64,000 bases of DNA from assembly GCA_002633005.1 (NCBI GenBank), contig NMRA01000403.1:189930-253929 (forward strand), in the 5' to 3' direction. Origin of the DNA: Phoronis australis (Eukaryota; Animalia; Phoronida). A program made the translations under genes and the position numbers. Under the pieces are notes generated by a model, which saw only the letters and a program-made list of their open reading frames with translations, had not been told where the DNA came from and ran no database searches. Positions 2,981 through 62,338 of this stretch are shown piece by piece; position 1 is the stretch's first letter, and each line of letters starts with the position of its first letter.

Positions 2981-2982
2981 TT

Positions 2983-7500: not shown

Positions 7501-7929
7501 GATTTTTGGTCGCGAGGTGTCGCTTCCTATTGATATTATGGTTGGTCTGTGGAGGCGGATTCGGACTCCTCTCCTTCATGCTTGGTTGAATATGTTGAGT
7601 GGCTGAGGTCGTCTGTCCACAACTCTTTCGAATTTGCTAGAGAGAACCTACAAAACAGTTCTAGGCGCCAGAAAACGTATTACGACGCTAAAACAGTTTT
7701 GAATAAATTTGAGGAGGGTAGTTTTGTTTATAGGTGGTACCCACCCACTGCTCAACAGAAATTGGGATTGGGTCGGCGGGGTCCCTATTTGGTTGTTGCA
7801 AAGTTAAGTGACTACATTTACAGAATTCAGGAAGGACCTGGCGCTCGTGCAATTGTGGTACACGTAGACCATTTAAAGGCCTGTTCACAGGAGGGCTTGG
7901 TTCCCTGGCATAACGCAAAGTTGTCGTGA
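4505..7929 (+). pseudogene. pol: Pol polyprotein (aspartic protease, RT, RNase H, integrase) with several frameshifts and stops
   Basis: LYDGGS protease; LDLASGYWQV, LPFGL, YIDD RT; FILDTDAS RNase H; HHCC and DIMGP...HSDQG...ERFN integrase; split across 7 ORF pieces. Confidence 0.93.
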
Positions 7930-22200: not shown

Positions 22201-25200
22201 CAAATTGTAGCAGGTTTTTCAGATTTGCTCACNGCAGGCTAGGTTTTTGACAGAAGATTTGTAGAAAATCCCAGCAGTTAAGGACAAACGACGTGATCGT
22301 TGTTCACAGGTTCCGGATGAGCTGTTCTAAATAACATCGATCACGTAAACGCAGTTGCCTGGAAGACTTTTACTATCAAATTGTAGCAGGTTTTTCAGAT
22401 TGGCTCACAATTCTGTCTTCACGCCAACTTATCAGATTTTGCGTTACAATAAAGGAACGCCGAAAATTTTCGTACCTTTCAGTCATTTGCCGTTAACATT
22501 CACAGGTGCCTATGGTTTTATACACTCTGTTCAACATTTCCCTAGATTTTGTTACAGGGTATTCATTTTTTCCAGGCGTAATATTTGCACAGTTGTCAAT
22601 CCAAGCGTGGTTGATGGTGAAACGTATATTTTCCGGGATATAATTTTCACAAACAATTCCCCAAGTGGCAAATGTTAAAAGTTACAGATTCAAAATATAA
22701 CGAAATATGTTAACCAAATATGTCACCAAATGCGCGCACCAGGGGAGGCTCGGGGGGCTCGAGNATCTGAATGGTTGACCCCCCACCTTGCCGCTTTTTG
22801 GCTGTACAGTGGTCGGTGGATCCGTGGACTGATACTTAATTACCATTTTCTGAAAACGGCATTGATGATTATTGCTTATTACAAAAAATATGTAAGTAAA
22901 TCAACTGGCATGCGTGCTTATAAATGATAGATGGCGCTGCTTTTGTTTACGTGGAGACTGAAGAGCATCTAGAATAAGAGCAGTAACACGAGGACCTTGC
23001 TATAATTCAAGACTTCGCGAGATATTGTCCTGCATTTTAAATGAGAACATATGGTTTTGGATAAATTTAAGAGAGGTTCTAGTGTTACTGAACTCACCCC
23101 TGCCTTGTTTTCTATCTGCCTTATTCGTTCCACAGGTAAAGGAAGGCACCCAAGGTGGATATGACCCGCTAGTGTTCAGTGCAAAAAATCCTTCAACTTG
23201 TCAATAGTCATTGTAACTTTGGGATCATATTGTAATGTCCCTGCTGGTTACTACAAATTTTAGTCGCCACCAGTCGCCAGAAATCTGGTGTTCCCCCCAC
23301 ACACCGGGCACCTTAAGATGACGCTGAATATTTCTGCCAATGTGATCATCAGTGGTATAAAAAGGTACACATTCACAGTCAATAGAAAATAATTCACGAG
23401 AGACAATTTTATTAATGACTCATTCATGACAGACATGAAGTAAATAGAAGTAACGGTCTCGACTTCTTATATCACACATCTTTCAGTGGTATGCTACAAC
23501 ACTAGGCTAAACGTTGAGCTCATTTACCACTTCATTCACTAAATCTGACGACATAACAGCATATTCAGCAGAAATAGCATTGTCATAAACATTGCTGCAG
23601 ACAACCTCGAAAAAAACCAACAATCTGCGATTCACTTAACATCACAGATAAACAATTTCACAGTGGGTTCTCGTAATGTTTTCTCCATTTTGGCACTTCA
23701 GAGGGTGAACGTTTTTACCTGACTTATCTCCTTCATCGAATATGTTCGTCAGAAATTTCTTAACCTTTGCTGAAAATCTTGTTGACCTTTTACCTTTTTT
23801 CAATGCCTAACCTATTGCTTCAGCATTCGTCACATCCAAACAGTACTCTGAGGCTGCCTCAAATGACGCTCCGGTTCTTGCATCTGAGAGCATTTCTGAC
23901 CACTTTCGTGCGATGTGGTCATACGTGGTTTCCCTTTGTAAATGTTCAGTGTGGTTACCCACATCCAAATGCTGACCTAGTTCTGCGTCTGTAGCAAAAA
24001 ATTTCGAGTAACCTTGCTGGGTACAAGGGAACTTTTGCTGAGGCTCTTCACTAGATACAATGCCAATCTTAACTCCTGGTGTTGAAAATCCGCCATGTCT
24101 AGAGATGTTACTGTATTTGAGAGAAACATGCTTCCCATTTTCTCAGTATTTGTAAGAACTTACCGTCACCTACATGGAATGATTTCCACGCGCGAATTCC
24201 TTGGGTGGAATAGTGGGAATTTGGGAATGTGCTTATACCAGGAACTGAGTATTTTGGAAAACACTTTGTTGCATTGACTGAGGATGCATACACATAACAT
24301 CCCCTTCACACGGCCACTGGAAAGTAATTCTTCTTTCAAATCCAGAAAGTTTATGATATTGTTACCTTCGGCTTGAGTGGAGCGATCTTGCGATCACAGA
24401 GATCCTTTCCATTCTGACTTTCACTATCGAAACAGAAATGCCGGTAGTTGATAAGGCTCCTACGTTCAGGAGGAGAGGATCAGAGTGGTAACATCCAGCA
24501 TTACCTGACTCTTCCATGACTGGTACTGTTCAATCAGAAATTCACCGACTCTGGGTAGTACGAGTCCGTACTCTGGCAGAGGCCTTGCTTTGTGAGTTAA
24601 ATGTACTTCCCTGTATCTCAAATGTTCAGTGGTGTCTTTGACATAACTCACTAAAGCACAAAGTTTTTGTGATCGGAATTTTTGCAGAATAAACTCTAAA
24701 GGAACATGGAGACCCATCGACATCGTCCGCCACTTTGTCTTCTCAAAATGCACTTGCTTCTCTCAAAACCAGTCATTACAAATATCAATTCTTACTCCAT
24801 TTAAAAGTCCTGTAGAGTGTTTAAATTAACCCGATAATGTAAAAGAAATGAAAAAATACAAGAGGGTTACACGTACATTTTTATATATCCTCAAGCTTAA
24901 ACTCAACTGACTCCCTCAGTGGGCAAAAGTCATTGGGTTCAGTTTTGATACTAGCCGCGTAATAAACCCGGAAAACATCTTGTTTTCATTTTAAAGAGTT
25001 TAAACTTGGTTTATAACTATTTAAAGCAGACTTCTTGTTTAAAAGAAAAAAAAGTTTATTCAAATGGTCTGTAAATTCTGCTCGTCATTTCCAAACTATG
25101 AAAATAGACAGTTTTGCAAGACAATTTTCACTAAAGTGCAAAGTTGAGGCAAGATTTTTTATTACTCAGACATCAAGACTAACTCTTTAGCTGTATGTTC

Positions 25201-28200: not shown

Positions 28201-31200
28201 ACATCGATCACGTAAACGCAGTTGCCTGGAAGACTTTTACTATCAAATTGTAGCAGGTTTTTCAGATTGGCTCACAATTCTGTCTTCACGCCAACTTATC
28301 AGATTTTGCGTTACAATAAAGGAACGCCGAAAATTTTCGTACCTTTCAGTCATTTGCCGGTAACATTCACAGGTGCCTATGGTTTTATACACTCTGTTCA
28401 ACATTTCCACCAAATTTGTGCTAGATTTTGTTACAGGGTATTCATTTTTTCCAGGCGTAATATCTGCACAGTTGTCAATCCAAGCGTGGTTGATGGTGAA
28501 ACGTATATTTTCCGGGATATAATTTTCACAAACAATTCCCCAAGTGGCAAATGTTAAAAGTTACAGATTCAAAATATAACGAAATGTTAACCAAATATGT
28601 CACCAAATGCGCGTACCAGGGGAGGCTCGGGGGGCTCGAGCGAACCTATTTTTACAAAACGTGGTTGTCAAAACGTTTCTACATTTTAGTGGCTTTGATT
28701 TTTTTCTTCGAGAAAACTTATCGTCAATAGCACAGTATTTCCGAGTACGGTATCAAAAATAAAAGAACCGTTTGCTTATCAACAGATTCTACTTGGACTT
28801 CCAATGTCATCTTTAATGTATTAATCAGATTATCACGAAGTCACAGAAAACAGTTATTAATGATTTTATACACTCCACTTTCTTGCGAAACTAAGCGGAA
28901 TCTTCGCTTAGTGTGACTGATGAAAATATAAATTAGAAAAAACTAATAATTGCGTTACACATATTCAAGATACTCAAATGAAATGTTTTCAATGTAGACT
29001 GATTCACAAGTTCATTACAAGTGTTTACTCAAAATGGCGTAATCGATTGTGCTCTTTGTACTACAGTGTATTTGTACTGATTTCACGGAAACTGATGCAC
29101 ATATTTTTGGGTAGTTTCCCTGTTGTAAATGCGGTATGGGTTAGATTATTGCCGGCTAAAGCATATCTTCTACGAGAATATTTCTTTAACAACTACACTG
29201 TAATGCAGCTCTGTTTGGTTCTTCGGAATCTTAGAAAGTATTAGAGTATAATGTTATTTTTGCTTAGCTACACTTTCCTTATCTAAACATGAACTTAAAG
29301 GTAGTATTCCAGAGTTTTGAAAACACAAAATAGTATTATTGCATTTTATGTAGATTAATGTTAAACACATAAGATATGTCAATAAACTTACGGGTATACA
29401 GTGTACTTGCAGCAATTACTTTTATTGCTTTAGTCGTTTTGTCACATTTTGTGATCAACTTTTCTTGATTAAATACACATGCAGGTGTATATTTATGTGT
29501 ATAGATACATGTACATGTAAATGTACCACGCCCATACACTGTGTATGCATGCATATGTGCTTCACAGTAAAGCAACAAAAATATACGGCTTCATATACTC
29601 GACTATAAAGTCAACGTCTAGTAGCCTGGGTTATTTGCTACATGTATGTGGTCTTAACAAAAAGCGTTGTTTTTGATTTGCGTTTATTTTTGTTGTATCA
29701 CTTGTTCGGTATTGTTACGAAATGCCTTTATCCAAGCAATAGTTTATATCCTTAGACAATACTTAACATTGTGGTCATGGCACAAGCAAAAATAATAATA
29801 ACTCGCCTTACCTCCACATTTTGGGACATTGTCAAAATCCCAGCTCGCTGTCACGAATTCCAGGTCGCAAAAATTACCCGCAATTTTTATGCGCCAAATT
29901 GATTTTTAGGCCATCGACGGAGAAAATGTTTAGATAAAATGCTCTTACCTTCGGCGTTAAGTATTCTCAAATTTCAGGTTGCATAACTGAGTTCTTAATG
30001 TTTGATGTATCTGTTTTCCTCCGAAGTCGACCGCTTTTGATATGCCCTAGATGCGCTTGTTGCTTTGCAAATCAAATAATTCCCTGCCGCCTGACCTTCC
30101 TGTAAGGGTTTTCTATATCTACCGTACTATAGCACATCCTTTCGCGAGTTCAGAAAATTAGTTGCGAGCTTTGGTGCCTAAGTGAAAGTTGAGCCAGTGC
30201 TCTCTAACCGTTTCGAGTTACTAAATATGCATCGTAAACAATAGAAGAAAGTAATAGTTGAAAAGATACGCACGACTCTTTTATTATTAATCTGCCATGT
30301 TACTGTAATCAAAGTCGTTAAAGAAGCAAAGATATATACATTATGCTTTTACTCTGAGTGCAATCTTCCTCCATTTGTTTGTTCTTCAAATTTTACGACT
30401 CGACTGACTAAAAAACATGCTGTCGAAAAAAATCCGCAAAACGTTTTCCTAGCTGAATGACGTGTTGTGCATACACCGCTATCGATTTGGGGGCAGAAAT
30501 TAAGATGACATAAACAGTTATCAAACAAACGGCAGGTCATCACGAACAATTAAGAACGGAATGCTGTTTACGTTTTCGATTATAAGCTTTTCATTAAATA
30601 AAAAGCTTCAAATAATACCCATTCCGTGCGGGTTTCCATTATTGGGTAATTCGAGTTTGCTCCCTTAGCACGGATACACTGTACACGTGCAGTGCTGTAG
30701 TGGTAAAATTAAAGGTAAGTACATGTAGGCGCCCAAAGCCCATCCTATCACCTTGAGCGCTGAACGTGTCTTACGGTGGATANGCAAAAATAATAATAAC
30801 TCGCCTTACCTCCACATTTTGGGACATTGTCAAAATCCCAGCTCGCTGTCATGAATTCCAGGTCGCAAAAATTACCCGCAATTTTATGCGCCAAATTGAT
30901 TTTTAGGCCATCGAGAAAATGTTTAGATAAAATGCTCTTACCTTCGGCGTTAAGTATTCCCAAATTTCAGGTTGCATGACTGAGTTCTTAATGTTTGATG
31001 TATCTGTTTTCCTCGACCGCTTTTGAAATGCCCTAGATGCGCATGTTGTTATGCAAATCAAATAATTCCCTGCCGGCTGACCTTCCCGTAAGGGTTTTCT
31101 ATATCTACCGTACTATAGCACATCCTTTCGCGAGTTTAGAGAATTTGTTGCAAGCTTTGGTGCCTAAGTGAAAGTTGGGCCAGTGCTCTCTAACCGTTTC

Positions 31201-34200
31201 GAGTTACTAAATATGCATCGTAAACTAGAAGAAAGTAATAGTTGAAAAGATACGCACGACACTTTTATTATTGATCTGCCATGTTACTGTAATCAAAGTC
31301 GTTAAAGAAGCAAAGATATATACAATATGCTTTTACTCTGAGTGCAATCTTCCTCCATTTGTTTGTTCTTCAAATTTTACGACTCGACTGACTAAAAAAC
31401 ATGCTGTCGAAAAAAATCCGCAAAACGTTTTCCTAGCTGAATGACGTGTTGTGCATACACCGCTATCGATTTGGGGGCAGAAATTAAGATGACATAAACA
31501 GTTATCAAACAAACGGCAGGTCATCACGAACAATTAAGAACGGAATGCTGTTTAAGTTTTCGATTATAAGGTTTTCATTAAATAAAAAGCTTCAAATAAT
31601 ACCCATTCCGTGCGGGTTTCCATTATTGGGTAATTCGAGTTTGCTCCCTTAGCACGTATACACTGTACAGTACGTGCTGTGCTGTAGTGGTAAAATTAAA
31701 GGTAAGTACATGTAGGCGCCCAAAGTCCATCGTATCACATTGAGCGCTGAACGTGTCTTACGGTGGATATAGGCGCTATGTTCAAATGCCAAAAGGTGGT
31801 TGGCTGCGCCGACGTGCGCCTACGGCCCACTACAGCACTGTGTAAGTGCCATATACATGTAAGTATGCTGACAATAGATTAGCCTCAAAACAACACGTGA
31901 CCCTAGCATGCATGTCGCTATGGCAAGGCCGTACCTTCTTAGGCACAAAATGAATCCGGGATTTTGCTTTTAAACGTTCTTTTAGAAAATGAATTTGTTG
32001 TTACCGGTAAGTAAAATGAGAGTGGGACCCACTATAGACTGCGTAAGTGACAAATTCAAACCACGCGTACGCTAACAGGATACAATACAATGTCTCCTTC
32101 GATCACTGCACACATGATTATACCGTGCGACTCGAAACATCGCGATCCGGTTTCCGCATTTTGAATACATCTTGCAGTTTTGAAAACAAATTCCAGCGAG
32201 TGAAATTGTGGGTGGGGGCTTGCCAGAGCTGTTGGCGCTTTATTGAAGGCTGCCAAAAGTTAAGAGGGCGATTAGTAGAGCTGTTGGCGCTTGTTCCGAA
32301 AACTTCCAAAGGTAAGGAATACTGTACATGTACACTGTAGGCACAAACTTTAGTTTGGTCGTTGTTACGAATGATCGCCGTTTAAAGAAGACGTTAAAAG
32401 CAAGTACCATGTTTCTGTGCTATGCAACCACCAAGGCGTCAATGTTTGGATATTCTTAACAACCACGGTACATGTATTTTAGCCACCCGCAACATCTCTT
32501 CTAATTATCTTTAGCTGACGTTTCAATTGGAACAGTACTTTTTCCAAGCGAGTTTTAAAAATCAGTGACGTAGTCAATTGAAGACACTAGGAGTAAAAAA
32601 TTTTCATATATTATTAATCGCTCACAATTTTACGTCTGCTTGTTCATACATGTTAGTAGCAATAGTTACATGTACCAACTCAAAACTTGCCTGCTGAAAG
32701 AGAAGTCGTGTTCGTCGTTTGGCTATTGATAGATGTAGGGTTGAAATTTACACGCTTTGTGTGTTTTGCGATAAGAAAAACGAGACGCATGTTCAAACAT
32801 TATGTTACTTTATTTTTCCGAATCATTATCCCCTGATGGGACCTCGACCGTGCACAAAAACAACAGGATCAAGCAGTGTCGCAATGCGATACTAAATTTA
32901 TCTGAGATAATGTAATTGAATAATCAAGACATTTTACTTAAAAAATTAATTCATTTTTTTCACCACAAACTTTGGTAAGTTGATCGTTCCAGAATTTTTG
33001 TAAACGTCGCTCTTTTGTGACGTTTTATCATGTATTCTGCCATGGCCCAGAACTGGCTTCGGCGCAACAACAAAATTATGGTCGGACCCACATGAGTTGC
33101 TTCATAATTGCCTGGTATATGCTGAGAAGTGTACTACATATAAAATCTCAGTACGCTTATGTTGGAAATTCTAAGTTGCATACATGGACTTGATACGAGT
33201 GGCCAAAACCCGTGCTCTCATAAGAATTTTGGTCTGTACAGTACTACTATTGCAATATGCTAACGTGTCGAGACTGAGTTCAATAATAGGTCTTAGTTAA
33301 CGGGAACGACGTAACTCTGTTTTTAAAATACACTTTAGCAACATTCTTGTCATGGTTGTGCGGCCGTATTTTGATGTTTCCTGGGCACTCGGTTGATGAA
33401 ATTGGATGATGAGATTAATCATTTCGAGTGAATGTCACCCTACTGAAGATCTTGTCTTGGAATTACACTTGTCAAAAAGTAAGCGAAAGTGACATAGGCC
33501 TAATTTTGTTATTTAATCTTGATGCTCCGTTCAAAAGGTCACTAATAAATGTACACTGTACATGTATTGTGAACTCAATATTTATTTTTCAAAACAATTA
33601 AAACGAACGCATTGACATTTGCTTGATTTCAATCCGGCGGCATTTTTATCGCTCTGTATCAGATTTTGAATTCTCTAGTGAAATGAAGTACAGTGTTGAC
33701 GTGCAAATGCATGTCTAATTATTGATGTCCAGATGGTCTTCTATAATAGATGTACTGGTGTAGACGCGACGCATTGTATTACTTGAGTGATTTTAAGAAA
33801 CAATTAAATTTTAAAGATTTATTTAGATATTTTTCAAACAAGCACTAGTTTTACGGTGCAATATGTTGCTATAATTACGCATCATTTCCCATATTTTGTA
33901 CTTATGTTTTACGGTTCATGTTATAATTTTTGGTATGAGAGCTATTACTATATTATATTATTTCCCATATGTACACATCAGTAAGTTTTTTTTACATATT
34001 TTGCCCATGTAGCCGTGTAGTCTAAGCGGCTTATGTTCAAGATGTTGAATTTTTTGGTAGTCCTTGTTTGCATGCCATTAAAGCGGTCGTGATATTACCG
34101 TTTCATATGAAGCTCTTTGAGTCCACATATTTTTTACCTTTCTCTCTTTGAGAACCATCTCAAGGTAAATCAGCGATCATCTCAAAATTTTCTAGCACAA

Positions 34201-37200
34201 CATAGAAAATTGTATCCTTGTCGAAACAGCATTTAGAACGTCTGTGCGTAGAAAGAGTCAAATTAATGTCAAAAACTCAAATTGCAACATCTTTTATTTC
34301 GTTAGTCACGTTCTCTTTAATTGATTTCTTGCGATAATGAAATGCCCCTTTAAATATATTCAAGAACTGACAAATGTATCAATTTATCGCGTGTACACGC
34401 GAAAACTGTCTGGAAAAGCGCTCTTTTTAAAAGCAACGCTTCGCCTGGCCAGACCACTGCCACGTCGTCTGAAGAACAGTTGAACAAGTTGGGTTTGCGT
34501 CGAAATGGGAACCACAAGATTGATTGATTTTCTGAATAGCAATCTTGATAAGAAGATTGGTTTTGGTAAAATGTGTTTCTTCATGTGTTTAATTTGTAGA
34601 GCAGGGTTTATCATTTCCAGGATATTGTTCCTGCTAGCATTTTGTTCGAGACAAGTGGAATTGTGTTCCCAGTGCCCGTGTTCTTGGCTTGTAACAAACC
34701 CTATACCAAACATTGCCCAACTTATATTTTCTTAAACATCTTCAGACTTCAGTTGCGTTTTGATAGTACCCCGTGCCAATACCATATTCACCCTATATTG
34801 ATGTTCTCTTATCCTTTTATTCCGATTGTTCCTAACTTTAATTTGTTAGAAATTATTTTGGATCTCAGGAAAAAGTGAAACCGTACTTCGTAAATTAGTT
34901 TGACTACATGTGCATGTATGTTTTTTCAATTCATGCGTCCAGAAGGAATTGTTTTGCGGTAGACCTAATTAAAAGAAACCAGACGACCACGAAAGTTTTA
35001 CTCATATAATTTCAGCTTTCAAATAGAGTATATTTGATTTTTAAATGTCTATTACATCATATTTTGTGTCAAAATTTTTCCAGCAAATTAAATTTCGTCC
35101 TGTTCATCTGTCTAAAAACGAAAAGTGAATTAAACCATTTGCTCTCATGAAATTGATTATTAAATATGAAGATGATGGTCATATTGTCAATAACAATGAT
35201 TGTTCTAGCTGCAACCAGTCGCCCATATTTTTAATGAACATGCTATGTCTTTGCTCTGAGGATTATTTCTGACACTAACAAACATACTACGAAAGCGATG
35301 TAAACTTGTTCTTTATAAATGATGATCTATTACAAGACAACTGATATATTGCATGATAAACAGAAAGTAGATTTAGTAATTGTGTGTACAATTGTCTTAT
35401 TTCAACGTTTCCATGATGAGTAATTAAGATTCACGGTGAAGTTAATGATTCTGAAGTTTGCTATAACTTGTTCATTGTTTCTGCAGGGCACAGCACTACA
35501 CCGTGCAGCAGGGTGGGGACGTACAGAGGTGGCGCGTGTTTTGTGTAAAGCAGGCGCTAATATCAACAAGCAAAACGTGGTAATAGAAACTACTTGAGAC
35601 GATTTTATAATTAAGACAGTGTTATCTTTGTTACAAAGCTGTAGACTAACTGAAGTTTAACTAAACATGTTGTGTGTAATAACACTTTTTATTTCTCATC
35701 ATTTCGACATGTATTTTTCAATCTGTACCCGGTACATGCATCTTAAGAAACAGTGAGGTTTGAATTGTGTCAACAATATATTTGGCGATTTAACCTTGAT
35801 ATTTTTCTATTCTTAATGGTAATCGTCCATTCAACATTACAACTTTATATTAAACAGGAAGCCGTTAAACCGGTGTATAAACACAACATGGAGGGGTCAC
35901 TGTGAAGTTATGGCGGCGCTCAGTAATTTCTGACAGTCGACGTCTACACCATGTTCTGTTCTTACTTCAACATTTTAAAATCACCTGTAAAACTTGAGTG
36001 TTGAAATCATTACAGGTATTGTAGCGTCTTAGAGGGGTCAGTAATGTTTCATTTATGTCACCTTTCAAGTTCACTGATCCCCTGTGTATGTTAATTTGCT
36101 CTAAACGTTGATCGTCCATTCACACATCTCCATTATATATTACATAGATGATGGGCTGGACACCGCTGCACTTGGCAGCACTGTGTGGTCATACAGAGAC
36201 AGTGAAGTGTCTTGTGGAACACAACGCTACAGTGGATGTCCGTACTCAGGTAATTAAGGACACACAGGTTGTTTGGTTGAACTAGTTGTTTACACAAGAG
36301 ATGATTAAAACTGTTGAAGAACAAATTTTGTTGATATTTTCCCAATTTAATGTCCTTAAACAATGTTAAAATAAATGTCGTCTGCTTTCCGTTAGAGAAC
36401 TGCCAAAGCTGCATCCGAACATTTCAGTTGATTCATTATTGCTGTTTTATTTACCGATATATATTCTACATTTCGTCAAACAATAGTTTCCTCCAGTCGA
36501 TCTGGATCGCCTCATTTAGTTTAGGACTTATTTTCTACCTTATTTTGATTGTCCAACACTTTACAGCGCACAATTACTTGCTGTGTGTTACCGTCCTGTA
36601 ACGAGACAGGGAACACTGAACACGCTCTGTTGTTTTGTTCTTAAACTTAACATTTCCATGTTGAAATCATTACAAGTATTGTAGCGTTTTAGAGGGGTCA
36701 GTAATGTTTCATTTATGTCACCTTACAAGTTCACTTTCCCCCGTGTATGTTAATTTGCTCTAAACGTTGATCGTCCATTCACACATCTCCATTATATATT
36801 ACATAGGAGGGCCTGACACCGCTGCACTGTGCAGCACTGAATGGTCATACACAGACAGTGAAGTGTCTTGTGGAACACAACGCTACAGTGGATGAACGTG
36901 ATAAGGTAATTAATGACACACAGGTTGTTTGGTTGAACTAGTTGTTTACACAAGAGATGATTAAAACTGTTGAGGAACAAATTTTGTTGATATTTTTTAT
37001 AATCTAATGTCTCTCAACAATGTCAAATTAAATATCTTCTGCTTTCCATAGGAGGGCCACACACCGCTGCACCTGGCAGTACAGGAGGGTCATATAGCCG
37101 TCGTACAGTGTCTCATCGAACTCCGGGCCAACGTGAATGTTCGTAATGAGGTAATTATTGACACACAGGTTGATGAACACAATACGTGACTAGGCTAATT

Positions 37201-40200
37201 ATTGCGTGTTTTAATTAAATAATCGCAAATTGTGAAGTTCTGGAACAGAAAGGTATAAAACGTGACGTCCTCTTGACACACCCACTTCGCTATATTTAAG
37301 GATGACCGGCATTCTCTCATGTTTGTTCACTTTAGAATGGAGATACATGTACAGCATTACACCTGGCGTCGCAGAGTGGAAAGGCAGCGGTCGTAGAGCT
37401 GCTTGTCAATGAAGGCAGTTGTGAGGTGACTGCCGTAAACAAGGTATCTCTAGAGTGCTGCACTCCGAGCTTAGTAAATGTTCCAATAAACATGTTTTAA
37501 ATGAATATTGAGTTCGAGGAATTGTTCATTCATAATAAATATCTCATCAAAAATGAACAACCTCTTTACGTGGAGTTATACAAAGAGTCACTTCTTCACT
37601 GCAAGTACCTTCCCTGAACACGCAGTGAAACCAGAGTCGCTGGTGTGATCGTACTATTGGCATACTAACTAAAAAACCAACCACACCATAAAGCGCCGAA
37701 CACATACACAGATTTTAATTTTCTCACCTCATAAAGTTTATTCAGGTTTTTAATCACGTCAGTGCGCATTTAGGAACCCCACTTAAGTTTTTTTAGCCAA
37801 GATTGCTTTAAAAAGGGACTTTGAACAATCAGACTTCTAAGTCACATTGTCGCAAGTCCGTTCGGTGCAAACTTTTCGATAGGATAGTAACAGAGCACAG
37901 CACTGTACACTCATCTGGCCGGTGAGAGGATATTCCGCGAATAAAGTCGCTTGTGTTGCAGTTGCTAGTGGAATATATAATACCCACACACAAAATGTGT
38001 GCTATGATCAGGATCAATCAAAATCGTTTCCTTTTGAGTAAAATAAATGCATGTCTAAATATTTCGTTTAAATGTCTATTCCTATTATCAATTTCAATGA
38101 AAGTTTCGAATCTCATCCTCTATTAATTAATTAAAACCATTTGATAATAACCAAGTACTACAAGATGTGGATTTTTGTCTAAAAACGTTTTGTTGATGCT
38201 ACGATGGTCAACACAAAAGTGACAAGACTAAATCGCGGTGTGTGGTATGGCGGATCTTGATCACGAAATAAAAAATACGTAAACATTTCAGTTTGAAAGC
38301 CATCAAACAGTTTGGTTCACCCCTCACAGTACCATCGTATTTCGGGTACCAGGACATAGTTCTCGGCGCAGCCCATCAAATGCTTTTTAGATTAAACGTT
38401 CTGGTCAAAACCTTCCGCAAGACGTGCGCTTTCATAGAAATGCAATTACGCAAAAATTAAATGAATGGACAAAAATATTCATATCTTCAGGAAGAATAAG
38501 AGACTGGCATTTCTTGAGATGGATTTCACATTACGACTGAGACTAAATCGAATCTTAATTATATTAAAAACTTTGTTCAAATTTCAACATTGTAGTGAGA
38601 AGAACGGTTTGGGGGTTTCAAGTTGTGAGACTTAGTTCTTGAACGTAACATTTTCGATGATGTGTGCACTGAGTGTATTGTGTGGAGAACGTGGAAGTTT
38701 TAAAACTCTTTCGGTAATAGCTTTTTGGGGGATGGTTTATTATTAAAATATTTATTCGCATTCCACTTTATTGTCTCAAATGTATGAACTAATAGAATGG
38801 CAACCCTTTTCGTATTGAGTCACTTACATCATTATTAAAGATGCTATATTACAGTATAATTCAATCACTTTCCTTTTCTGTGAGATTTGTCGGGTAGCAT
38901 ATAATTTTATCGATGGCCATGGTGCAACCTACTTTAATTCCTTCGGTGTGAGCATTATAGTATATGAAAAACAAAAAAATCACCAGAGGGCTGCAGGTTA
39001 CTTGAATTTGCAATAAAACTCTCAGCGTGTCTTTATTTTGATCCCACTGCACGACTATGTATGTTAATGGCGTTGTTTGATTTATGTTCTCTGTAATGAT
39101 GTAAACTTGCGAGCTCCATACGACGTCATTTGGCCTGGGTTGTTTGTAAAATGTATTTAAAAAATGTGCCACCGGTCGGGGTATAACCACCTGTCTCTGC
39201 CACGTGCACAATCTTTTTTCTTATAAACTGTGAATTTTAGGCCCCCACTTTCGGGTGTTAAAATCTCAATTTCCATTATCTTTTCCGTGCAAATTTTAAG
39301 TCATTCTTGAGCGCATATCTGGATAAATTGCCAAGGAGCTCCTTACTGAAAGATGCACAAAATTGTACAAATAAACATGTAGAGAACTGGAAATGTGTGT
39401 ATGTTTTAATATTTGATTGCCGTTTATGAAGTAAAACTACATGTGAAGGGTTCGTTGCTCTATGATTTGCATGTTTATGCTTCCACGAAAATCGGCAATT
39501 CTCCGATTTACGAATAAAATCTGCCAATTCTTAAAGAAACATCTTCAGAACATTGAGCTTCTAGACCCCCAAGCAACAAGTTCCGTAGATTCCAAAACGT
39601 GTTACGTATTTTAGAATGTTGATGTTTTAGGACACTTTTACCAAGGAAATTTAATGAACCAAGGTGTAGAGCTGAGACAATAACAGTGGGGGTGTCAGTA
39701 AACTTTTTTTCATTGGTTTCCTTTTATAAATTCTGAATATTTGTCATGTAAGCCAGTGTGTCTGTGTTTCATGTATTTTTACCCTATATGCGCGTATTTA
39801 GGCCAATACGTAAAATGAAATATTATAAAGCCTACAAAACATGCAAGTATACAAAGGATATTATGCATGTGTTTGTGCGAAACATTTGAGTATGAAAATT
39901 TCCTTATGGCAGTTATTTCGGATATAGGTGTTAGTGCCTAAATAATGCGTAAAACACACAATGCTCTACACTGGGTTACACTTTTCGTTGTTTACTCAAA
40001 AAATTTCGTTTAGTGTTCTTCTTTAGAATTAAAGTGCATTAAAATGTGCCAAGTAAACAAATCTCTTACAGTGTATGCTCTAGTGGTCGAATAAATGTCA
40101 GTGGCATTCTGAATACGTGCTGTGCTTTTACTGAAACACAGACTGGTTAATGAAAGCTGTTTCCACTACTACAAAAGATTGAACGAATTCAGTTGACGCG

Positions 40201-43200
40201 ATATAGGCTGAGCATCACCTGATTTGTGATTAAGGCATTTTAAGATGGAAATCAGTGCTTGTCCGATGTTTCTTACACGACGACAATCTCGAGACTGTCG
40301 TGAACACATCGGCCACGCGTTAACAGCTCATCATTTAGGCGAAGGTCAGTCGATGTCATGTTGAGTGTCACCAGATCGCCAACAGATAATTCTACGACTT
40401 AAGCTGCCGAAAACACTTTGCCTAATGGTGCTTCAGTTGCTGCGTGTTGACACCGATGGCACCGACTGCACTCCGGAAAATTTCCAGGCAACTGCCCGCC
40501 TTCCATCGACATAAATGCGAGCCACCTGATTGTTTTAAACGTGATAGTGTGTTGATACTACCCACCCAGAACAATGATATCTTTGTTTCTGTTTCGCTTA
40601 CTACAGTATTATACGTGTGTGTTAAGGATTTGTATGCCCTAATTTAGCAGTCTACCTATTTTGATAATGCTTAAAAACATGGATTGTAACAGAGTTGATG
40701 TTTGTAGTTTCTGAAACTAAACTACAAAATTTGATTTTTACCTCTCTACTACTCTGCCACTATTTGCATCACGTGACTTAACAGAAAGGAAATGTACATT
40801 GATAACAAAACAATATCAGATTTTATAACGTATAAATCTTTAAGATGATATCTCAAAACGTTACTGTTTCTAATACACCTGTTCGTTTTTTTGTATAACT
40901 CGTGAAATCCCTGTTGACAGCCTCTCATGCAAAAATGCATTGTTTTAAAAACAGTTACGTACAGTGTGTTAGCAAACAGTGCATGAGAATAGTTTCCGAT
41001 CAACCCTTTTGAGATAGGGTACTCCGAAGTTATCCAAATGTCCCTGGAACCCACACAACCTTAAAGAACAAGCGCCTCATACAAAGCTGCTGGTTACATA
41101 TTTGAAACAGCTTGAGTGAAGTCAAGAAGCAAAATTTACAAATCAAGTGAACAAATAAGTAATATCGCTCTATTCTGTAATACCCGGCAATAAAATGTCC
41201 TTGATATGTGACTGAAATAAATCATAGTTGTTTCATTTTGAACTTGGCGTAATTTTTGACAGTTTAAATATCATTTCCACGAGCTGTTCATCAAACAATT
41301 GAAAATCGTGCAAATTTGTTTTTGGTTCATCAACACATTTCCATGCTTCTTGTAGGAAGGCAACACGCCGCTGCACAGCGCGTCTTCACGTGGCCGGCTA
41401 GCTGTTGTGGAACTGCTTCTGAAAACTGGTGTCGATGCGACGGTTGTTAATACGGTAAGATAAGAGTGTCAATCAAATTGTGTGGTATGCTATCAGTATC
41501 TGCTTTCAATGGATAGGTAAGAGTGTTTGTAGTCATCATAACTCATTACAATTGTATATGTAAATATTATGTATGTCCTGGTACACTGGAACAGCGTCCA
41601 CCGTTGCTGATAAAGTCCTTTTCTACTTTTCTTTAAACTCCGAAGCGACTATCGACACGGAATTTTTAACAAATTTAAACTATTCACTTGATGTAGTAGC
41701 CAGGTCGCTATGTGACTGCTTCAAATTTTGAAGAACCCGCAGCCCAATGAAGCCAGGAACTTACGTGAAGTATTACCATTTCGTTCTCAACGTTGTATAT
41801 TCGTCGTCTTTCCTGTTTAACACGCCAATCTACCAGCCTCGCATTGCTTATTTGGCGATAGGTGCAAGTATTCGGTTCATATTGGTACAGTTCACGTGCT
41901 TGATATTATAAAATTTTAGCACATGGTAGGAAGTAAATTTTACGTGCTTGTGTTACTCTTCAGTGTGAGCTTTAAAGGTAGTAAGTTGTGTCTTGCAGGT
42001 CGGACAAACAGCTTACGATGTCTGTGGCGACAATCGTGACATGTTTTTTAACAAAGTCGACGATGAGACTATCGAGAAAATAAAGAAAATTCTTGAGGTA
42101 TGTAGTAGTGAAAAAAATCAGATTCTTGCTACAAAGACCATATTTTGTGATTAATGTCATTAACGCCATTTGCACGATTGGGAGAAGTCGTGTGTTCGAA
42201 CCCCGATCTGGACAGAGATATTTTCAGACTTAGCTATAGGTCACGTGGTGCGACCAACAGATGGCGTGTCAGACGACTGATAATTCTCTCTTTTTTGTTG
42301 TATCAGTGTTATTTTGTTATAAATATACATCTCGCCTAGGCGGGTACAAGTAAGGTTTTCTCTCACTGCATTGGGGATCTTTGTATCATTTAAACAGCTC
42401 GGAACGTAATGTAGTAAATACTTGTGTCTAGAATCTGATATTTCTTTTACTTTATTTGACAAAAATCGTTGTTCACTGTAGAAGAATATGCGATTAAAGC
42501 AGCAAAGCGGAAAACCACCACCCTCAGATGAAAATGCGAACGGAAATCTCCTTCCTGTCAACGAGGAAGAGAGCGTACTATTAGCGTGGCTGGAGGGTTA
42601 TCTGAAGTCGAAATATCGAGACATCCCTGACGGCGAATTGGACGTCAGCGTAAAAATAAAAACGAGAGAGAACGGCACATTCCAACTGCTGAGTGTGGAT
42701 ACCAAGCTGATGGGTATTATATTGTGACTAAGTGTAAACTAAGATATATGTAAACACAGTCTTCATATAGACCGTTAAGTTCCATGTATAACGATATTTT
42801 TATTGAGACACCTCTGGAACTCAATACTTTAAGCTGTCATTAGCATGGCGAAAGTGCACGATGACAGCGCATTTCCAGAGGATTAAAACCGTTACTTGTC
42901 TTGCGTATTCAAAGACAAGAGGTGACTATGACTTCAGAATGGAAAGCATGCCGTTGTTATCAATGACAGTACATGTATATTAAGAGCCAGGACTAGGAAT
43001 TACATAGCCAGCTACATGTAGCTACATATACAGTACGTGATGGCTTCCTGTAAGCTAAAAAACTGGTCAAGAAATTCAACTATATCAGTTTTGATTGCAA
43101 TCATTAACTATGTAAAATTTCAAAATCTTTGTTAAGAACCAATAACTCATAATTACAAGGTGGTTAATGATACAGAGTAGATCCTATTAATTTGTGTACA

Positions 43201-45219
43201 AAATTACATGTATGTGTGGCATGTCATCATTTTCTGGAACAACTCATTTTGTGCTCAACGTTATAGGTGGGATGTTCTCTTATGTTCTCGTTTGCTACAA
43301 AAAACCCAAGTGACTACGTATTGATAGTTCTCCACCGAAATAAAATAAACAATAACCGATTATAGAGAGAGAAAGACGTTTTTGTGTGATTTTAAGGTAG
43401 TGAAATAGTCAAAATAGTTTATTTGAAAAATAAAATGAGCACCAACAACTGAAAACGGGTTGATCGACGAGTTTGACTGTGAGCCTGGAAGTGGTATTGC
43501 TCGCACTGGGGGAATTATGCACGGGAGTAGGATTTGTCCGAGAGTAGAGAAACATGTCCACCACACCGTAAAATGTGGTTCATGAAGTCAAACTACGTTC
43601 GCTAGGGGGGAACAGCGTGCGCGTCCGAAAGATGTTGCTCGTTTGTAGATAATTCTAGGTCTGGCAAAACGAAATAAATATTGAATCTATGAATTTAAGG
43701 GTCTGGTAACTGCTCATTTACGTTTGCAAGTTACGAAGTATACGGATGTTTCATTTCCTTTCCAGACTATTTCCCACTAGTTGTACCCGTAAGGCAGTCC
43801 TGTCTTTTGGGCAAGTTTCCTGAACAAGGTCAGAACGTGATATCGGCTGAGCTCCACGAGTCATTGGCCAATGCGCTGAAGTCGGTTGTTCTACTTGCAC
43901 GTGCAGATGCACAAGGAGTGGGGTCCGGCTTCCGAGTAGGGCGCAATTATGTGATTACAAACTATCACGTGTACCAATGCCTGAATGTCCCCAGTAAGTA
44001 TTTTGTCTGTTGATTGAATGTATGAATCCGGGTTTTTGTAATTCGCCTAGGACACATGTATAATGGTTCCACTTTCCCTGCTGTAATCAAGGACCGGAAT
44101 TTTAAGAGTTGGGTTAGATTTATAGGCCTATTTTCAGTTGTCCCCAGAGTTGCGCTGTGTATCGTCACTTGCCAATCTAATGCACTGTGATGACGACTAG
44201 TCTGNNNNNNNNNNNNNNNNNNNNNNNNNNNNNNNNNNNNNNNNNNNNNNNNNNNNNNNNNNNNNNNNNNNNNNNNNNNNNNNNNNNNNNNNNNNNNNNN
44301 NNNNNNNNNNNNNNNNNNNNNNNNNNNNNNNNNNNNNNNNNNNNNNNNNNNNNNNNNNNNNNNNNNNNNNNNNNNNNNNNNNNNNNNNNNNNNNNNNNNN
44401 NNNNNNNNNNNNNNNNNNNNNNNNNNNNNNNNNNNNNNNNNNNNNNNNNNNNNNNNNNNNNNNNNNNNNNNNNNNNNNNNNNNNNNNNNNNNNNNNNNNN
44501 NNNNNNNNNNNNNNNNNNNNNNNNNNNNNNNNNNNNNNNNNNNNNNNNNNNNNNNNNNNNNNNNNNNNNNNNNNNNNNNNNNNNNNNNNNNNNNNNNNNN
44601 NNNNNNNNNNNNNNNNNNNNNNNNNNNNNNNNNNNNNNNNNNNNNNNNNNNNNNNNNNNNNNNNNNNNNNNNNNNNNNNNNNNNNNNNNNNNNNNNNNNN
44701 NNNNNNNNNNNNNNNNNNNNNNNNNNNNNNNNNNNNNNNNNNNNNNNNNNNNNNNNNNNNNNNNNNNNNNNNNNNNNNNNNNNNNACTGTGCTTCTGCAC
44801 CTCCCACTGAGGGCGCTGGCGTCGCTGTACTTTCCGTGGGCTCGCCGTCGTAAAAACCGTTTAATTTGTAATTTCAGGTTTCTGAGTTAAACCAATGGGC
44901 ACAGCGGACATTTCCTGGCCGTGCCGTATTCCCACAAATCGACGACCCACGACGAGTTCTTTACCGAACAAGTCTACAGTTTGGCAAAGGCAGCTCAGGA
45001 AGTCCTGGTTTTGTACCCGATGACAAACATGAGGCGTGCGTCGCCGCGATACAGACACGTGGATTTCCGGATTTGCCAGATTTTCATTTCGTTCCCCAAG
45101 AGGTAGTCAAGGCTCGTTCTGTGGAGCAAGGGGTCAGGGTGGAGGCTGTCTATGACTTCCTCCACACCAACCACCCTGCACTGTGTCAGGATATCTTTGG
45201 CAACAATAAGCCTAGTTAA
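16115..45219 (+). CDS. Ankyrin-repeat + FAM111-like trypsin-fold serine protease gene (multi-exon; first exon and catalytic-Asp exon not visible)
   Basis: Exons 16115-16204, 35487-35579, 36148-36249, 36807-36905, 37052-37150, 37336-37443, 41356-41454, 41999-42097, 42482-42713, 43766-43993, [gap], 44878-45219; all AG/GT bounded, and phase-compatible without stops except across the N gap. Confidence 0.85.
17391..18300 (-). mobile_element. CR1/L2-like LINE reverse transcriptase relic (copy A)
   Basis: Paralogous to 25636-26560, which reads LDNESAFDKVSQDLFLYKV and YLSNR...GVRKPG.PFILYIN. Confidence 0.65.
18890..19029. mobile_element. Short MITE-like element
   Basis: Perfect 21-bp inverted repeat CGTTCAGTAACGCTAGGACCT; related copies at about 17020-17135, 57860-57955 and 62470-62590. 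Confidence 0.7.
19950..20630 (-). mobile_element. L1/Tx1-like reverse transcriptase relic
   Basis: Minus strand reads NRGCR..., QYTDDVALFEGYESSLK (YADD motif) and KFSDLNLNFDKTVCVW across frameshifts. Confidence 0.7.
20637..20875. mobile_element. hAT-like MITE
   Basis: TIRs CAAGCGCGCACCCAG / CTGGGTGCGCGCATG; inverted partial copy at about 19670-19805; half copy at 26585-26687. Confidence 0.6.
23590..25631 (-). mobile_element. Sola3-like DNA transposon relic (transposase pseudogene plus one terminus)
   Basis: Minus strand SGNAGCYHS, ESQNGKDLCDRK, PGIS...GIRAWKSFHVGDGK, HLDVGNH...ETTYD, SQIVGFFSRL; ends ...CTC|TTAA at 25631-25635, the GAG/CTC plus TTAA signature of Sola3. Confidence 0.7.
25636..26560 (-). 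mobile_element. CR1/L2-like LINE reverse transcriptase relic (copy B)
   Basis: ORFs 26118-26333 and 25891-26139 carry degenerate LD..KAFD.V.H and GVPQG...LFILYIND motifs. Confidence 0.7.
27296..27700. repeat. Tandem duplication of about 210 bp
   Basis: CCATGTAATAACCTCTAAC...AAAAAAGGCAC occurs twice here but once in the paralogous block near 21467-21660. Confidence 0.85.
29786..31769. repeat. About 1 kb direct duplication across an n join
   Basis: 29786-30782 closely matches 30784-31769. Confidence 0.9.
35487..35579 (+). CDS. Ankyrin exon GTALHRAAGWGRTEVARVLCKAGANINKQNV
   Basis: 93 bp, phase 0-0, ctgcag/gtaata. Confidence 0.9.
36148..36249 (+). CDS. Ankyrin exon MMGWTPLHLAALCGHTETVKCLVEHNATVDVRTQ
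   Basis: 102 bp, phase 0-0, TPLH motif. Confidence 0.9.
36807..36905 (+). CDS. Ankyrin exon EGLTPLHCAALNGHTQTVKCLVEHNATVDERDK
   Basis: 99 bp, phase 0-0; tandem duplicate of 36148-36249 including flanking intron. Confidence 0.9.
37052..37150 (+). CDS. Ankyrin exon EGHTPLHLAVQEGHIAVVQCLIELRANVNVRNE
   Basis: 99 bp, phase 0-0. Confidence 0.9.
37336..37443 (+). CDS. Ankyrin exon NGDTCTALHLASQSGKAAVVELLVNEGSCEVTAVNK
   Basis: 108 bp, phase 0-0. Confidence 0.88.
41356..41454 (+). CDS. Ankyrin exon EGNTPLHSASSRGRLAVVELLLKTGVDATVVNT
   Basis: 99 bp, phase 0-0, tgtag/gtaaga. Confidence 0.9.
41999..42097 (+). CDS. Ankyrin C-cap exon VGQTAYDVCGDNRDMFFNKVDDETIEKIKKILE
   Basis: 99 bp, phase 0-0; GxTAxD terminal-repeat pattern. 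Confidence 0.8.
42482..42713 (+). CDS. Linker exon of the ankyrin-protease gene
   Basis: Open frame KNMRLKQQ...VDTKLM, phase 0-1, fits the next exon. Confidence 0.75.
43766..43993 (+). CDS. Protease exon with the catalytic His (GSGFRVGRNYVITNYHV)
   Basis: ttccag/gtaagt, phase 1-1; His codon at 43966-43968. Confidence 0.85.
44878..45219 (+). CDS. Last exon, FAM111-like protease C-terminal part with the catalytic Ser (FGKGSSGSPG...VEQGV...HPALCQDIF)
   Basis: tttcag acceptor, 113 codons plus TAA; Ser codon at 44995-44997; frame absent from the ORF track. Confidence 0.85.
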   Translation, partial: VSELNQWAQRTFPGRAVFPQIDDPRRVLYRTSLQFGKGSSGSPGFVPDDKHEACVAAIQTRGFPDLPDFHFVPQEVVKARSVEQGVRVEAVYDFLHTNHPALCQDIFGNNKPS

Positions 45220-46324
45220 TTTGAGTCGACCATAGGGAGCTGTCAACCTAATCCTTATATATGTTAAGTTATTTTATTGCAATCAGGTTGTGTATTACCA
45301 TGTTTATGTACAGTTTTAGGCGTGTATATCCAGTAAACAATTTAGTTTTTGTCATACCTCAGGGCCGAGAAGCGTGGTCCATGCCCCAGAACACTGCTTA
45401 CAAATATCTGAATAAGTGTACATGTACATGTTGCTTACGTGAGTTTTACTGGCGGATTTAAAGTAAATGATCCTATAAGATGCCAGATGTGGTAAAACTA
45501 ACTAGCGCGTTGATAAGTTTGAATGCCTAAGAACAAAACTTCAGACTGAAAAGACAAGATATGATTTCCTGACACATTCATGGAGCCCGTTCTATGACCC
45601 TGACTTAAGTTCATTTTTACTTAAAGAGTTCCCACCATGTATTTTCTTGGTTTTTGAGGTTTCAGTGAGCTAATATGACATGAATACCATCAAGTGTAAC
45701 TGAAGCACTTTTTGTTCTAAATAGTCGTAATTTTTCTATCTCTGAAGATAAACTATTTATTTCCAAGTTTCTCGCCAAATGATGTAATGGGTGGAATACG
45801 TTTGGTCACTTGAGAATCAGTTGCAATGGCAGAAAACAGCAGATCAGAAGACTACAGGGTGTAGGACGATTTTCAGCGAGAACTGGACAATTATTATGAA
45901 GACAGGGAAGTGATCGGATATGGGCGTCACACAAACAAACAATCAATTCGATTTTGCACTTAACGAACTTTCGAGGGGTTTTAGGTCGTAAGAACTCGGC
46001 CCACATGCGCGAGAAATGCTGAAGACAAATGTTAGCTACAAAAAACTGAACCAAGGGGTGATCAATATTCACAAAATAGACTCTTAACAATCACAAGGCT
46101 GCAGTAAACCTGGGTCACTAGTATTCACTATTGCTATGATGGAATGAGCACGGTCTATACAATGCATGCGCCAACCCTACGTGTCGTAGCACTCGATATG
46201 GGCCGTGGTCGAGGGACTGGTATCACTCGCTCTATAATGGAAGCAGTTTGCTCGTTATTTATAAAATTTGAAAATACACTTACAAGGTGGTGAATCGTTC
46301 GTCGTTTGATCGAAACACAATTGN

Positions 46325-46467
<143 letters not shown>

Positions 46468-49191
46468 TGCGCCAACCCTACGTGTCGTAGCACTCGATAT
46501 GGGCCGTGGTCGAGGGACTGGTATCACTCGCTCTATAATGGAAGCAGTTTGCTCGTTATTTATAAAATTTGAAAATACACTTACAAGGTGGTGAATCGTT
46601 CGTCGTTTGATCGAAACACAATTGCTTGAAATCTGCCGAACAAAGTGGGGCTCCAGACTGAAAGGCATGTTCCAGCCTGACATTCTACACTCTCATGCAT
46701 CGCACAAACCGATGTCATTTCTGTGCAACTTTCACGTATTTAGGAAATTTGAACCCAGAGACGTTCTCAGTCAAGTTACAGTTACTACAGCCTCCACAAA
46801 CGCTCGCCGCGGACTTTCCTAACAACTCCTCAGTAAAAAAAAACTACGGCAGAGACGGTCTTCCACCCATTACGTACAGGTGTACAACCCCTATACGAAA
46901 TTATCTTAGCAGCAGGCATACTAAAGGCTATTAAATCACTTAAGATGTTTTGATGAAATTCTTTATTAGATGCAGGGTCATGGTAGGAACTCTTTATGTC
47001 TAAGATTTGTCTAAACTTCCAAACTTTAAAACTTTCACATCCGCTAAGTTAGGCAAAATTAAGATAAAAATTAACTCAAAATTTAAATCGACATTAAAAT
47101 CTCTTCCTTGAGACAAATTTTAAGTTTTATTTTAAATTGACTGCAATGAAGGATAGGCCGTTTTCTTGGAACGTGTCCATGACCTGTATATATGATAATA
47201 GAACTCACATGTCCATGCACACAGTGTCCATACTGGGGTGAAATGTAGCTGCCTTAACACGGGGCACCAACCTCGGTTAATAACACACCCACATATAAAC
47301 ACGTGCATTTTAACATTTGCATATTTCTACTCTATATGTGTATAACATGTAATTACTTTTGATCGTTATCGCCAAGATAATGTATAGAAGTATCGTACAT
47401 TTTTGTATGGGAATTTATATCAATTTATTTTTATATCATATGATATCTGTTCTCGGCGTATTTCTATATACATGTATGTATATTTAAATGTTTATGCAAA
47501 TATATGTTAATAAAACAAATCATCTCAAAGTTACACGTAATATGTTGTGAACGAGTATACGGATTCACGTTAACGTGCTCTCTCCCTAAGTTTAGTTGAA
47601 AAGGGCGCCATTGGTAGCCACTCGTGGAACTACATGTACATATACATGTACTTCCGCGACCACGATAGCATGCTCACAATCCGGTATTTCAGATCTTTTT
47701 CTCGCGTCACTCTGTTTTAATCACGAGCATTTTCTTGTAATGACTAATATATTTTTGTCTCAATGCGCGTTATGAACACTTTGACAACAATGGAATTGAA
47801 TGAACGCTGCTACTATGGGCGAAGACTCTTTCATGGAATAGGCCTCTTTGAAGCTTAGTAAACGTGAAAGCAGGGGACAGCACTACTGTGTATACGCAGT
47901 TACAAGTACCATAGGGGTGTAAGATTGTGTGCAGGGGGCAGGGATCAGTATTGTCTTGCACGTCCTTCGGTCAGCTTAGAGTGAGAGGTCGAGAGAGGAT
48001 CTCCCACGAAATTAAAATAAGTTGTTTCGCGCCACCAGGAGGTGATTGTGGTTTTAAGAACATCTATTCACTAATGTTTGTTTTGAGTTACGCTCCATGC
48101 TAACAAGAAAACATTATTTTAATATTAAAACGAGACAATCCATAACTTGGCGAAAGTTTGCAAGTAAGGCTTACATGTACATAGAAATAAAAACTGTGGT
48201 TTGGTACAGCAAAACCGCAAAGTGTTCGCATTTGGGTTATACACTGTACATGTACATATGTACATGTATATGGCCACGAAGATGCAATTATTGTTTTCCT
48301 TAGTATCCACGCAATGTCGTTGAGAAAGTTCGAGAATTTCTGTGGGGAAGATTATCGAAGCGTTAACTGATTTGTTGTACATTTTAATAAGGCTAGTCAC
48401 TAGCTAGCAACACCATAAGATCTTCAACACACCATACATACAGTGTACATATATTCAGTAGTGGTGGACCTGTGGGGGGTTCAGGGGGTTTAACCCAACC
48501 CCCTTTGGGACAAAACCAAAAAAATGAAAATTAAAACAAAAACTTCATCGTTACCTTAATAAAACAAGGCACAGTTTTTATTGATGTGTTAGTTTCGCTA
48601 TCAAATAACGATTGCGCAATAATTTGAATTTGTTTGTTCACAATTGTTTCTAAGTGTTTCAGTCGTGTTTTCTCTAAAACCGCATTTTATTTACGAATTG
48701 TTTCTTTACACAGCTCTCCAGGAAGTCACAAGGTGGCGCTTGCTACAAATTTAAATATTCACCATTTCAATGAGATACAGCAGATTCAATTGGACCTCTG
48801 GTGCCGTTTGATACATTCTTCAGTACCGGATGTAGTTGTGTGATATACATTGTAGATAGACCATGACATACATGAAAACTGCAATGCAGAACTTTCCCAT
48901 GGTAGTACAGTATGTAAAAAAAATTCATTTCTTAAGAAAGTAAAAATTAGTGATCCTGATACTTACATGTACAGTGAGTGTGGCTAAAATTTCTATTTCC
49001 ATTACGAACAAAAATATTAGAACCACTTCCAAGGCATGAAAACGTTAATGGAGTTTACTGTGAATTTGATAATGATGCATTCTTTGTGACTGGAGTTCAA
49101 TGGAAACTGAAATAAAACTTCCATCTGGATAAGGAACATTTAGAGGCCGATATTTCCATCATGGATGGGTGAAACACGGCTTTACCTTCCA

Positions 49192-53217: not shown

Positions 53218-62338
<9,121 letters not shown>

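Follow-up and report, generated by a model that had tools for sequence, protein, structure and literature searches.

Architecture and transcription of the locus

The stretch of Phoronis australis DNA analysed here (64 kb, hereafter the window) carries on its plus strand an array of ankyrin exons followed by a linker exon and by exons of a trypsin-fold domain (Table 1). The tandemly duplicated exons A2 and A3 are spliced ankyrin repeats of this transcribed gene, whose protease part is FAM111-like. The earlier note, which drew attention to the two exons, had left the gene unidentified; RNA, Pfam searches and family profiles now identify it as an ankyrin–FAM111-like protease fusion and not as an NLR. 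Each ankyrin repeat corresponds to one phase-0 exon with AG/GT ends, so that the addition or removal of an entire exon would leave the reading frame intact. Six of the seven repeat exons passed the gathering cut-off of Pfam PF00023 (21.1 bits) with 30–42.6 bits, A7 being without match, and the chain formed by A1–A7, E8 and E9 is open for 386 codons.

Table 1. Features of the ankyrin–protease locus (positions in the window; read numbers are given for runs X5/X6/X7)
Feature	Position	Strand	Evidence
Ankyrin exon A1, 31 codons, phase 0	35487..35579	+	Pfam Ank E 1.7e-7; RNA depth 126/138/427 at 35562 (three runs)
Relic acceptor flank like that of A2/A3, then possible decayed exon with in-frame stop	35790..35960	+	Flank 0/1000 shuffles; exon part not significant, 140/1000
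Duplicated unit 1: exon A2 with the introns on either side	35999..36390	+	blastn, 91% identity with unit 2
Ankyrin exon A2, 34 codons including an extra Met	36148..36249	+	Pfam Ank E 1.1e-10; A2-type ends spliced to A4-type exons in X5, X6, X7
Probable remnant of an A4-like exon, following the old unit 1 acceptor	36395..36500	+	17/1000 shuffles reach the score; weak
Duplicated unit 2: exon A3 with its upstream intron and the intron leading to A4	36658..37051	+	blastn against unit 1
Ankyrin exon A3, 33 codons	36807..36905	+	Pfam Ank E 4.2e-10; A3-type end spliced to A4-type exon, 34 reads X7
Ankyrin exon A4, older relative of A2/A3, related donor flank	37052..37150	+	Pfam E 5e-11; joint to A5 21/24/205 reads
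Ankyrin exon A5	37336..37443	+	Pfam search; RNA
Ankyrin exon A6	41356..41454	+	Pfam E 2.7e-8; joint from A5 18/23/154 reads
Exon A7, putative degenerate capping-type repeat	41999..42097	+	No Pfam match; spliced from A6 and to E8
Linker exon E8	42482..42713	+	Joints 19/12/173 and 11/7/142 reads; no Pfam or Atlas match
Exon E9, start of trypsin-fold domain, catalytic-His motif	43766..43993	+	hhalign prob 91.7, E 7.6e-7; hmmsearch E 4e-4 (window-free family profile)
Assembly gap, likely holding catalytic-Asp exon(s)	44205..44785	.	RNA beyond E9 reads open in frame
Last coding exon: catalytic-Ser motif, FAM111-type C-terminal helix, stop	44878..45219	+	phmmer E 8.5e-10 to bivalve Trypsin_2 proteins; E 1e-25 to window-free profile

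Transcription was followed in three RNA runs (X5, X6 and X7) that bear the same species label and represent three samples of one study, about 18–19% of each run being read. Among the joints listed (15 of 145), those between A4 and A5, A5 and A6, A6 and A7, A7 and E8, and E8 and E9 were present, together with A2-type exons joined to A4, while no A1–A2 or A2–A3 joint occurred among them. The first mate lay on the minus strand at all joints, which under the usual protocol indicates RNA from the plus strand. In X7, 170 reads run in frame from E9 into sequence absent from the compared genomic stretch, so the gap of Ns downstream of E9 likely hides coding sequence, and E9 would ultimately be spliced to the last coding exon. 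Neither an exon nor a start upstream of A1 was found in the window, where 14 upstream frames gave no Pfam match, and no further intact ankyrin exon occurs within the 64 kb. A transcribed segment at 34400–34570 (RNA depth about 22 in X5 and X6, 3 in X7) does not obviously join A1 in frame.

A protease domain related to FAM111A

A protein search with the last coding exon retrieved 17 proteins at E <= 0.001, one of which (P0008, repetitive) was spurious and was dropped; the ten that were looked up comprise six named bivalve proteins and four unnamed ones. Trypsin_2 was matched by 11 of the 17 and Ank by none, the sequences closest to the last exon being bivalve Trypsin_2 proteins such as KAL3870645.1, XP_053391286.1 and XP_021359513.1 (33–44% identity). 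Ankyrin repeats were likewise absent from the 16 matches of a second protein search, so that the phoronid gene differs from the bivalve FAM111-like proteins closest to its last exon in carrying them.

Profiles were built from three sets, namely 12 of the 17 matches plus the two window exons, nine window-free proteins, and 15 proteins. The family profile including the window exons matched FAM111A in the PDB (8s9l, 8s9k) at E 2e-27, and the window-free profile matched the FAM111A protease domain of the same entries at E 9e-23, the next match other than FAM111A (E 4e-3) lying about 19 orders of magnitude or more behind. When the window-free profile was run against 2189 six-frame pieces of the window, exactly E9 and the last exon scored above threshold. 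The His motif of E9, and the Ser motif and C-terminal helix of the last exon, align with the family, and the Asp part falls in the gap. The FAM111 assignment is transitive, leading from the window exons to the bivalve family and from there to 8s9l/8s9k: single protease exons do not reach FAM111A by phmmer at E 10, and PDB searches with them gave weak bacterial proteases or nothing relevant. Atlas searches returned Trypsin_2-like leads for the last exon; none of 63 candidates was confirmed in the homologue search with that exon, and exon A2 read into its intron gave 4 of 11 candidates, all generic ankyrin proteins (48–55% identity), none with a protease. A protease of NAL1 type was also considered and rejected, no NAL1 entry appearing among 4 and 15 profile matches.

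Relatives of the protease carry other front ends. The bivalve protein P0029 has a COR-A domain ahead of the FAM111-like protease, and in P0026 this place is taken by a region, recognised by eye, that is rich in Cys, resembles an ectodomain and includes a predicted membrane helix; the two are possible Roco-protease and receptor-protease fusions, respectively. This diversity of partners suggests that the FAM111-like protease could be a mobile effector module. The protease activity of FAM111A is dependent on dimerisation. FAM111A is documented to restrict poxviruses (PMC13245274), and its protease domain has been dated back to cnidarians (PMC13029412).

Divergence of the duplicated exons

Exons A2 and A3, both bounded by AG/GT splice ends, differ by 14 substitutions and one 3-nt indel, which are confined to eight codons (MM/E, W/L, L/C, C/N, E/Q, V/E, T/D, Q/K). 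All eight change the residue and the remaining 25 codons are identical, so that our recount agrees with the figures first given for the pair. The adjoining introns are closely similar: the upstream flank has 6 mismatches in 149 paired bases and one gap, and the near downstream flank has 2 in 91, altogether 8 of 240 sites (3.3%). The claim that the flanks are far less diverged than the exon holds for these stretches, but it had omitted 54 further homologous bases (36341–36394 versus 36997–37051) with 14 mismatches, which bring the whole homologous intron to 22 differences in 294 sites (7.5%). Identity between the units is thus patchy, about 97% over the 240 exon-adjacent intron bases and 74% beyond (near versus distal, P 1e-6), a pattern that suggests an older duplication whose centre may later have been homogenised. 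A4 shows 73–75% identity to A2 and A3, flank included.

By the Nei–Gojobori method the pair has 24.3 synonymous and 74.7 nonsynonymous sites, with 13 nonsynonymous differences and one synonymous difference, the latter being a mean over a range of 0–2 because two double-hit codons permit a synonymous step. The resulting dN of 0.198 against a dS of 0.042 corresponds to a dN/dS of about 4.7, and Fisher tests gave P 0.015, 0.095 and 0.28 for zero, one and two synonymous differences. All P values given for the duplicates are uncorrected and refer to a single pair picked from a scan, the only one covered by the codon-by-codon comparison. That no codon is purely synonymous has P 0.03–0.06 given 14 neutral changes. 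At the intron rate, however, zero synonymous changes are expected (P 0.2–0.5), so that their absence, which had been read as a sign of selection, says little by itself, since low neutral divergence predicts it.

The excess of amino-acid-changing differences is seen more directly against the introns. Sites of this kind exceed the near intron at P 1e-4 and the whole homologous intron at P 0.012. The packing of 14 changes into 8 of 33 codons has P 3e-4 on the assumption that any of the 33 can vary, and P 0.17–0.43 if variation is open to only 10–12 of them. Under relaxed constraint, with 12 free codons evolving at intron rates, about 1–3 changes would be expected versus the 14 seen (P<2e-7). At the age of the distal flank, the 25 unchanged codons would be unlikely to have stayed free of synonymous differences (P 0.002), which argues that homogenisation included the exon. 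Compared with the older A4, A2 and A3 show a whole-repeat dN/dS of 0.9–1.05 despite an invariant framework. Between A3 and A4, too, the 5' half of the exon lacks synonymous differences, a hint of constraint on synonymous sites.

Position of the changes on the ankyrin repeat

Six repeat positions randomised in DARPin libraries (2, 3, 5, 13, 14 and 33) were fixed beforehand from PMC8248824. In the six library codons 7 of 18 bases are changed, against 7 of 81 in the other 27 codons (P 0.003). The library codons also exceed the whole intron (22/294; P 5e-4), non-library codons do not (P 0.44), and against the distal intron segment, the most diverged, the library excess is not significant (P 0.22). 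Four of the eight changed codons fall at library positions (P 0.02), namely 2, 3, 5 and 14 in DARPin numbering, and the others at positions 1, 10, 18 and 32, while library positions 13 and 33 are identical between A2 and A3. Positions 1 and 32 belong to the hairpin region. Position 18 is the start of the outer helix, off the binding face. Position 10, a framework residue in DARPins, is nevertheless a documented target contact (PMC8248824).

The changes between A2 and A3 are, in sum, concentrated at hairpin and inner-helix positions. The earlier note had placed them only on the predicted binding face, an overstatement given that half of them are at library positions and that position 18 lies off the face; the assignment to a face itself rests on published numbering. 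Enrichment at library positions recurs between A2 and A4 (P 0.03) and is absent between A3 and A4 (6/18 versus 27/81, P 0.6). DARPins, for which general background is available (PMC8229355, PMC11284679, PMC8602657), are moreover artificial, and the natural pair differs from their design in varying also at positions 1, 18 and 32 and in keeping 13 and 33.

Copies, variants and relic exons

Sequence variation at the RNA junctions was taken from the rows listed (12 of 227), which cover junction-adjacent letters only and mix alleles with paralogues. In X7, the A4-type exons show E, W, S and C at hairpin position 3 in 29, 28, 24 and 34 reads, respectively. Since four A4 starts are impossible from one diploid locus, this run must represent two or more loci or pooled animals. 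Junctions into A4-type exons in X7 also vary in the residues at positions 1 and 2 and show new combinations of A2-type and A3-type ends, and position 3 of A7 is changed from V to R in 92 reads. No variant inside A2 or A3 occurred among the variant rows listed (40 of 1719).

Several observations point to copies of the unit beyond the window. At three points of the A1–A2 intron the depth in the DNA run X1 reaches 3.5–6.5 times the median of the downstream intron bins, and the RNA depth of this intron is 5–15 times that of the downstream introns; 6–11 X1 contigs cover two of the three points. Summed contig depth is not copy number, and these values do no more than hint at numerous copies whose introns are conserved. 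In X5 and X6 the ankyrin exons are, by rough estimates, several times deeper than the protease exon, and exons matching only half of A2 or A3 (loose ends at 36207 and 36891) account for 88 and 67 reads in X5 and X6 and occur also in X1, from which it appears that other genes share these repeats. The half-matching exons continue as a different ankyrin repeat, possibly through recombination within the exon or because they belong to more distant paralogues. One X1 contig carries a copy of the unit in which a shorter, unrelated sequence takes the place of the exon interior (36824–36904); this copy has probably decayed.

Within the window, the relic acceptor near 35858 and the probable relic A4-like exon near 36395 point to birth and death of exons, and the relics together with the depth excess may reflect repeat-number polymorphism. 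The A2–A3 intron contains at 36420–36545 a high-copy transcribed repeat, with a bin depth of about 25,700 in X1 and reads from both strands. Some letters of the window may be private or assembly errors, since the extra Met of A2 is missing from most spanning reads and six bases of A5 near 37344 are missing from X1 and from 7/7, 3/5 and 43/46 RNA reads.

Probable diversifying selection and its alternatives

We consider it probable, though well short of certain, that diversifying selection acts at the predicted binding positions and that the similarity of the remaining unit is maintained by exchange of sequence between copies. According to this model an older duplication of the unit, dated by the 26% divergence of the distal flank, would have been followed by homogenisation over about 340 bases through gene conversion or unequal crossover, and selection would have kept or driven the A2/A3 differences at recognition positions. 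The proposal of selection on a recognition surface, made when the exons were first noticed, is partly supported by the library excess (P 0.003) and by the RNA variants at hairpin position 3; it is weakened in that not all changes lie on the binding face and that the excess vanishes against the distal intron.

The most serious alternative, to which we would give roughly a one-in-four hearing, dispenses with positive selection. The exon differences would be patches of the old duplicate or of an imported paralogue, left where conversion spared short stretches, and the surface positions would merely be tolerant of change. At the age of the distal flank 12 free codons would yield about 9 changes, so that 14 or more would be unusual and still conceivable (P 0.06); in six of the eight changed codons two neighbouring bases differ, the pattern expected of imported patches; and donors exist, since other ankyrin exons share half of A2 or A3 (X5, X6, X1). 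The 5' half alone, without synonymous change, has P 0.045 at the old age. Over the whole exon, however, changed codons would need to interrupt the conversion tracts every 9–12 bases, and the tracts would still have to leave no synonymous difference (P 0.002), and a process sparing exactly the library codons would itself amount to selection against homogenisation.

It is improbable that the A2–A3 tandem arose in the assembly, through the placing side by side of two alleles or of exons from two paralogues. Such faults do occur in the window, where tandem duplicates flank single Ns (a ~1-kb pair around 30783, 96% identical, and an exon fragment after 46324) and several letters are missing from all X1 contigs; moreover, no listed read or contig bridges A2 and A3, and A2-type ends splice straight to A4-type exons. 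Between the two units, however, there is no N, and their 5'-ward sequences are unrelated (47% identity), unlike an allelic overlap. The spliced depth in X7 (rough values of about 430 for A2, a mean of about 440 for A3/A4 and 260–350 for downstream exons) fits about two or more A2/A3-type exons per transcript, and the amino-acid excess would need selection even between alleles.

Still less probable is alternative or mutually exclusive splicing of A2 and A3 as cassettes providing several binding surfaces from one gene, as the near-identical flanks, the phase-0 symmetry and the direct A2–A4 joints of all three RNA runs might suggest, because those joints come from other alleles or copies, their first codons differing from the A4 of the window, and because both exon types are, by rough estimates, at or above the depth of the downstream exons.

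Under diversifying selection with exchange among copies, the ankyrin array might bind a fast-changing ligand, probably a pathogen protein, and aim or activate the cytosolic protease, thereby uniting sensor and effector in one chain; we hold this possible, at somewhat less than even chances. An immune role of the gene would follow from it. Slightly more tentative is the wider proposal of an animal innate-immune receptor family, in which single-repeat exons duplicated, converted and discarded across many copies would supply a DARPin-like repertoire wired to a FAM111-type antiviral protease, with no need of an NLR NTPase.

Comparison with known systems

The precedent invoked for this mode of evolution, positive selection on repeats of fungal NLRs, is real. 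For the NLR Pa_3_8560 of Podospora anserina, PMC4986451 describes similar neighbouring repeats with changes on the inner helix and β-hairpin, as well as signs of exchange between repeats and probable variation in repeat number, features that recur or, in the case of repeat number, may recur at the present locus. The present gene differs in belonging to an animal, in giving every repeat its own exon and in having conserved intron flanks. The partner of its ankyrins is a C-terminal trypsin-fold protease, and between A1 and the stop codon Pfam found neither NACHT nor NB-ARC in the exons. A2 and A3 are 76% identical (25/33), whereas the threshold stated in that source is >85% over 100 residues, and A4–A6 are further off.

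In human FAM111A the protease is preceded by a PIP box and UBL domains (PMC13029412), where the phoronid gene has an ankyrin array and a 77-residue linker (E8) that found no Pfam or Atlas match, a result with which a remote UBL fold would remain compatible. The resemblance of its protease to FAM111A does not in itself imply orthology, and on sequence grounds the gene is classed as an ankyrin–FAM111-like protease fusion, neither an NLR nor FAM111A proper. Ankyrins and trypsin-like effectors are mentioned among immune architectures in general, FAM111 not being included in the text available (PMC8195603). The evolutionary regime is therefore known from fungal NLRs, and no description of an ankyrin–FAM111 fusion was found in the literature searched, which mostly leaves subscription journals outside its coverage.

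Diversified intracellular recognition is poorly mapped in invertebrates. If our reading is correct, the regime of fungal NLRs, concerted evolution combined with diversifying selection on ankyrin faces, would operate in an animal as well, by way of exon birth and death, and invertebrate FAM111-like proteases would gain a plausible immune role as effectors fused to different front ends. The combination of variable positions with conserved intron flanks makes such a repertoire easy to amplify and test.

Other features of the window

Near-identical tandem duplicates lie at 29786–31769, 22059–22408 and 46165–46624. In all three a single N marks the join or a place close to it (30783, 22233 and 46324), and they are probably haplotype or gap-filling artefacts of the assembly. 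The segment 46325–46465, immediately after the N at 46324, repeats by eye a trypsin-exon piece of about 61312–61455 and is likely a misjoin. Remains of a Ty3/gypsy-type LTR retrotransposon occupy 646–8200 on the plus strand, with frameshifted gag-, RT-, RNase H- and integrase-like frames named by eye, the gag part being present twice around a single N at 2759. Finally, a kringle-kringle-trypsin, plasminogen-like serine protease gene extends on the plus strand from about 53220 to 62340 (Pfam Kringle E 7e-9 and 4e-19, Trypsin E 1.5e-11).
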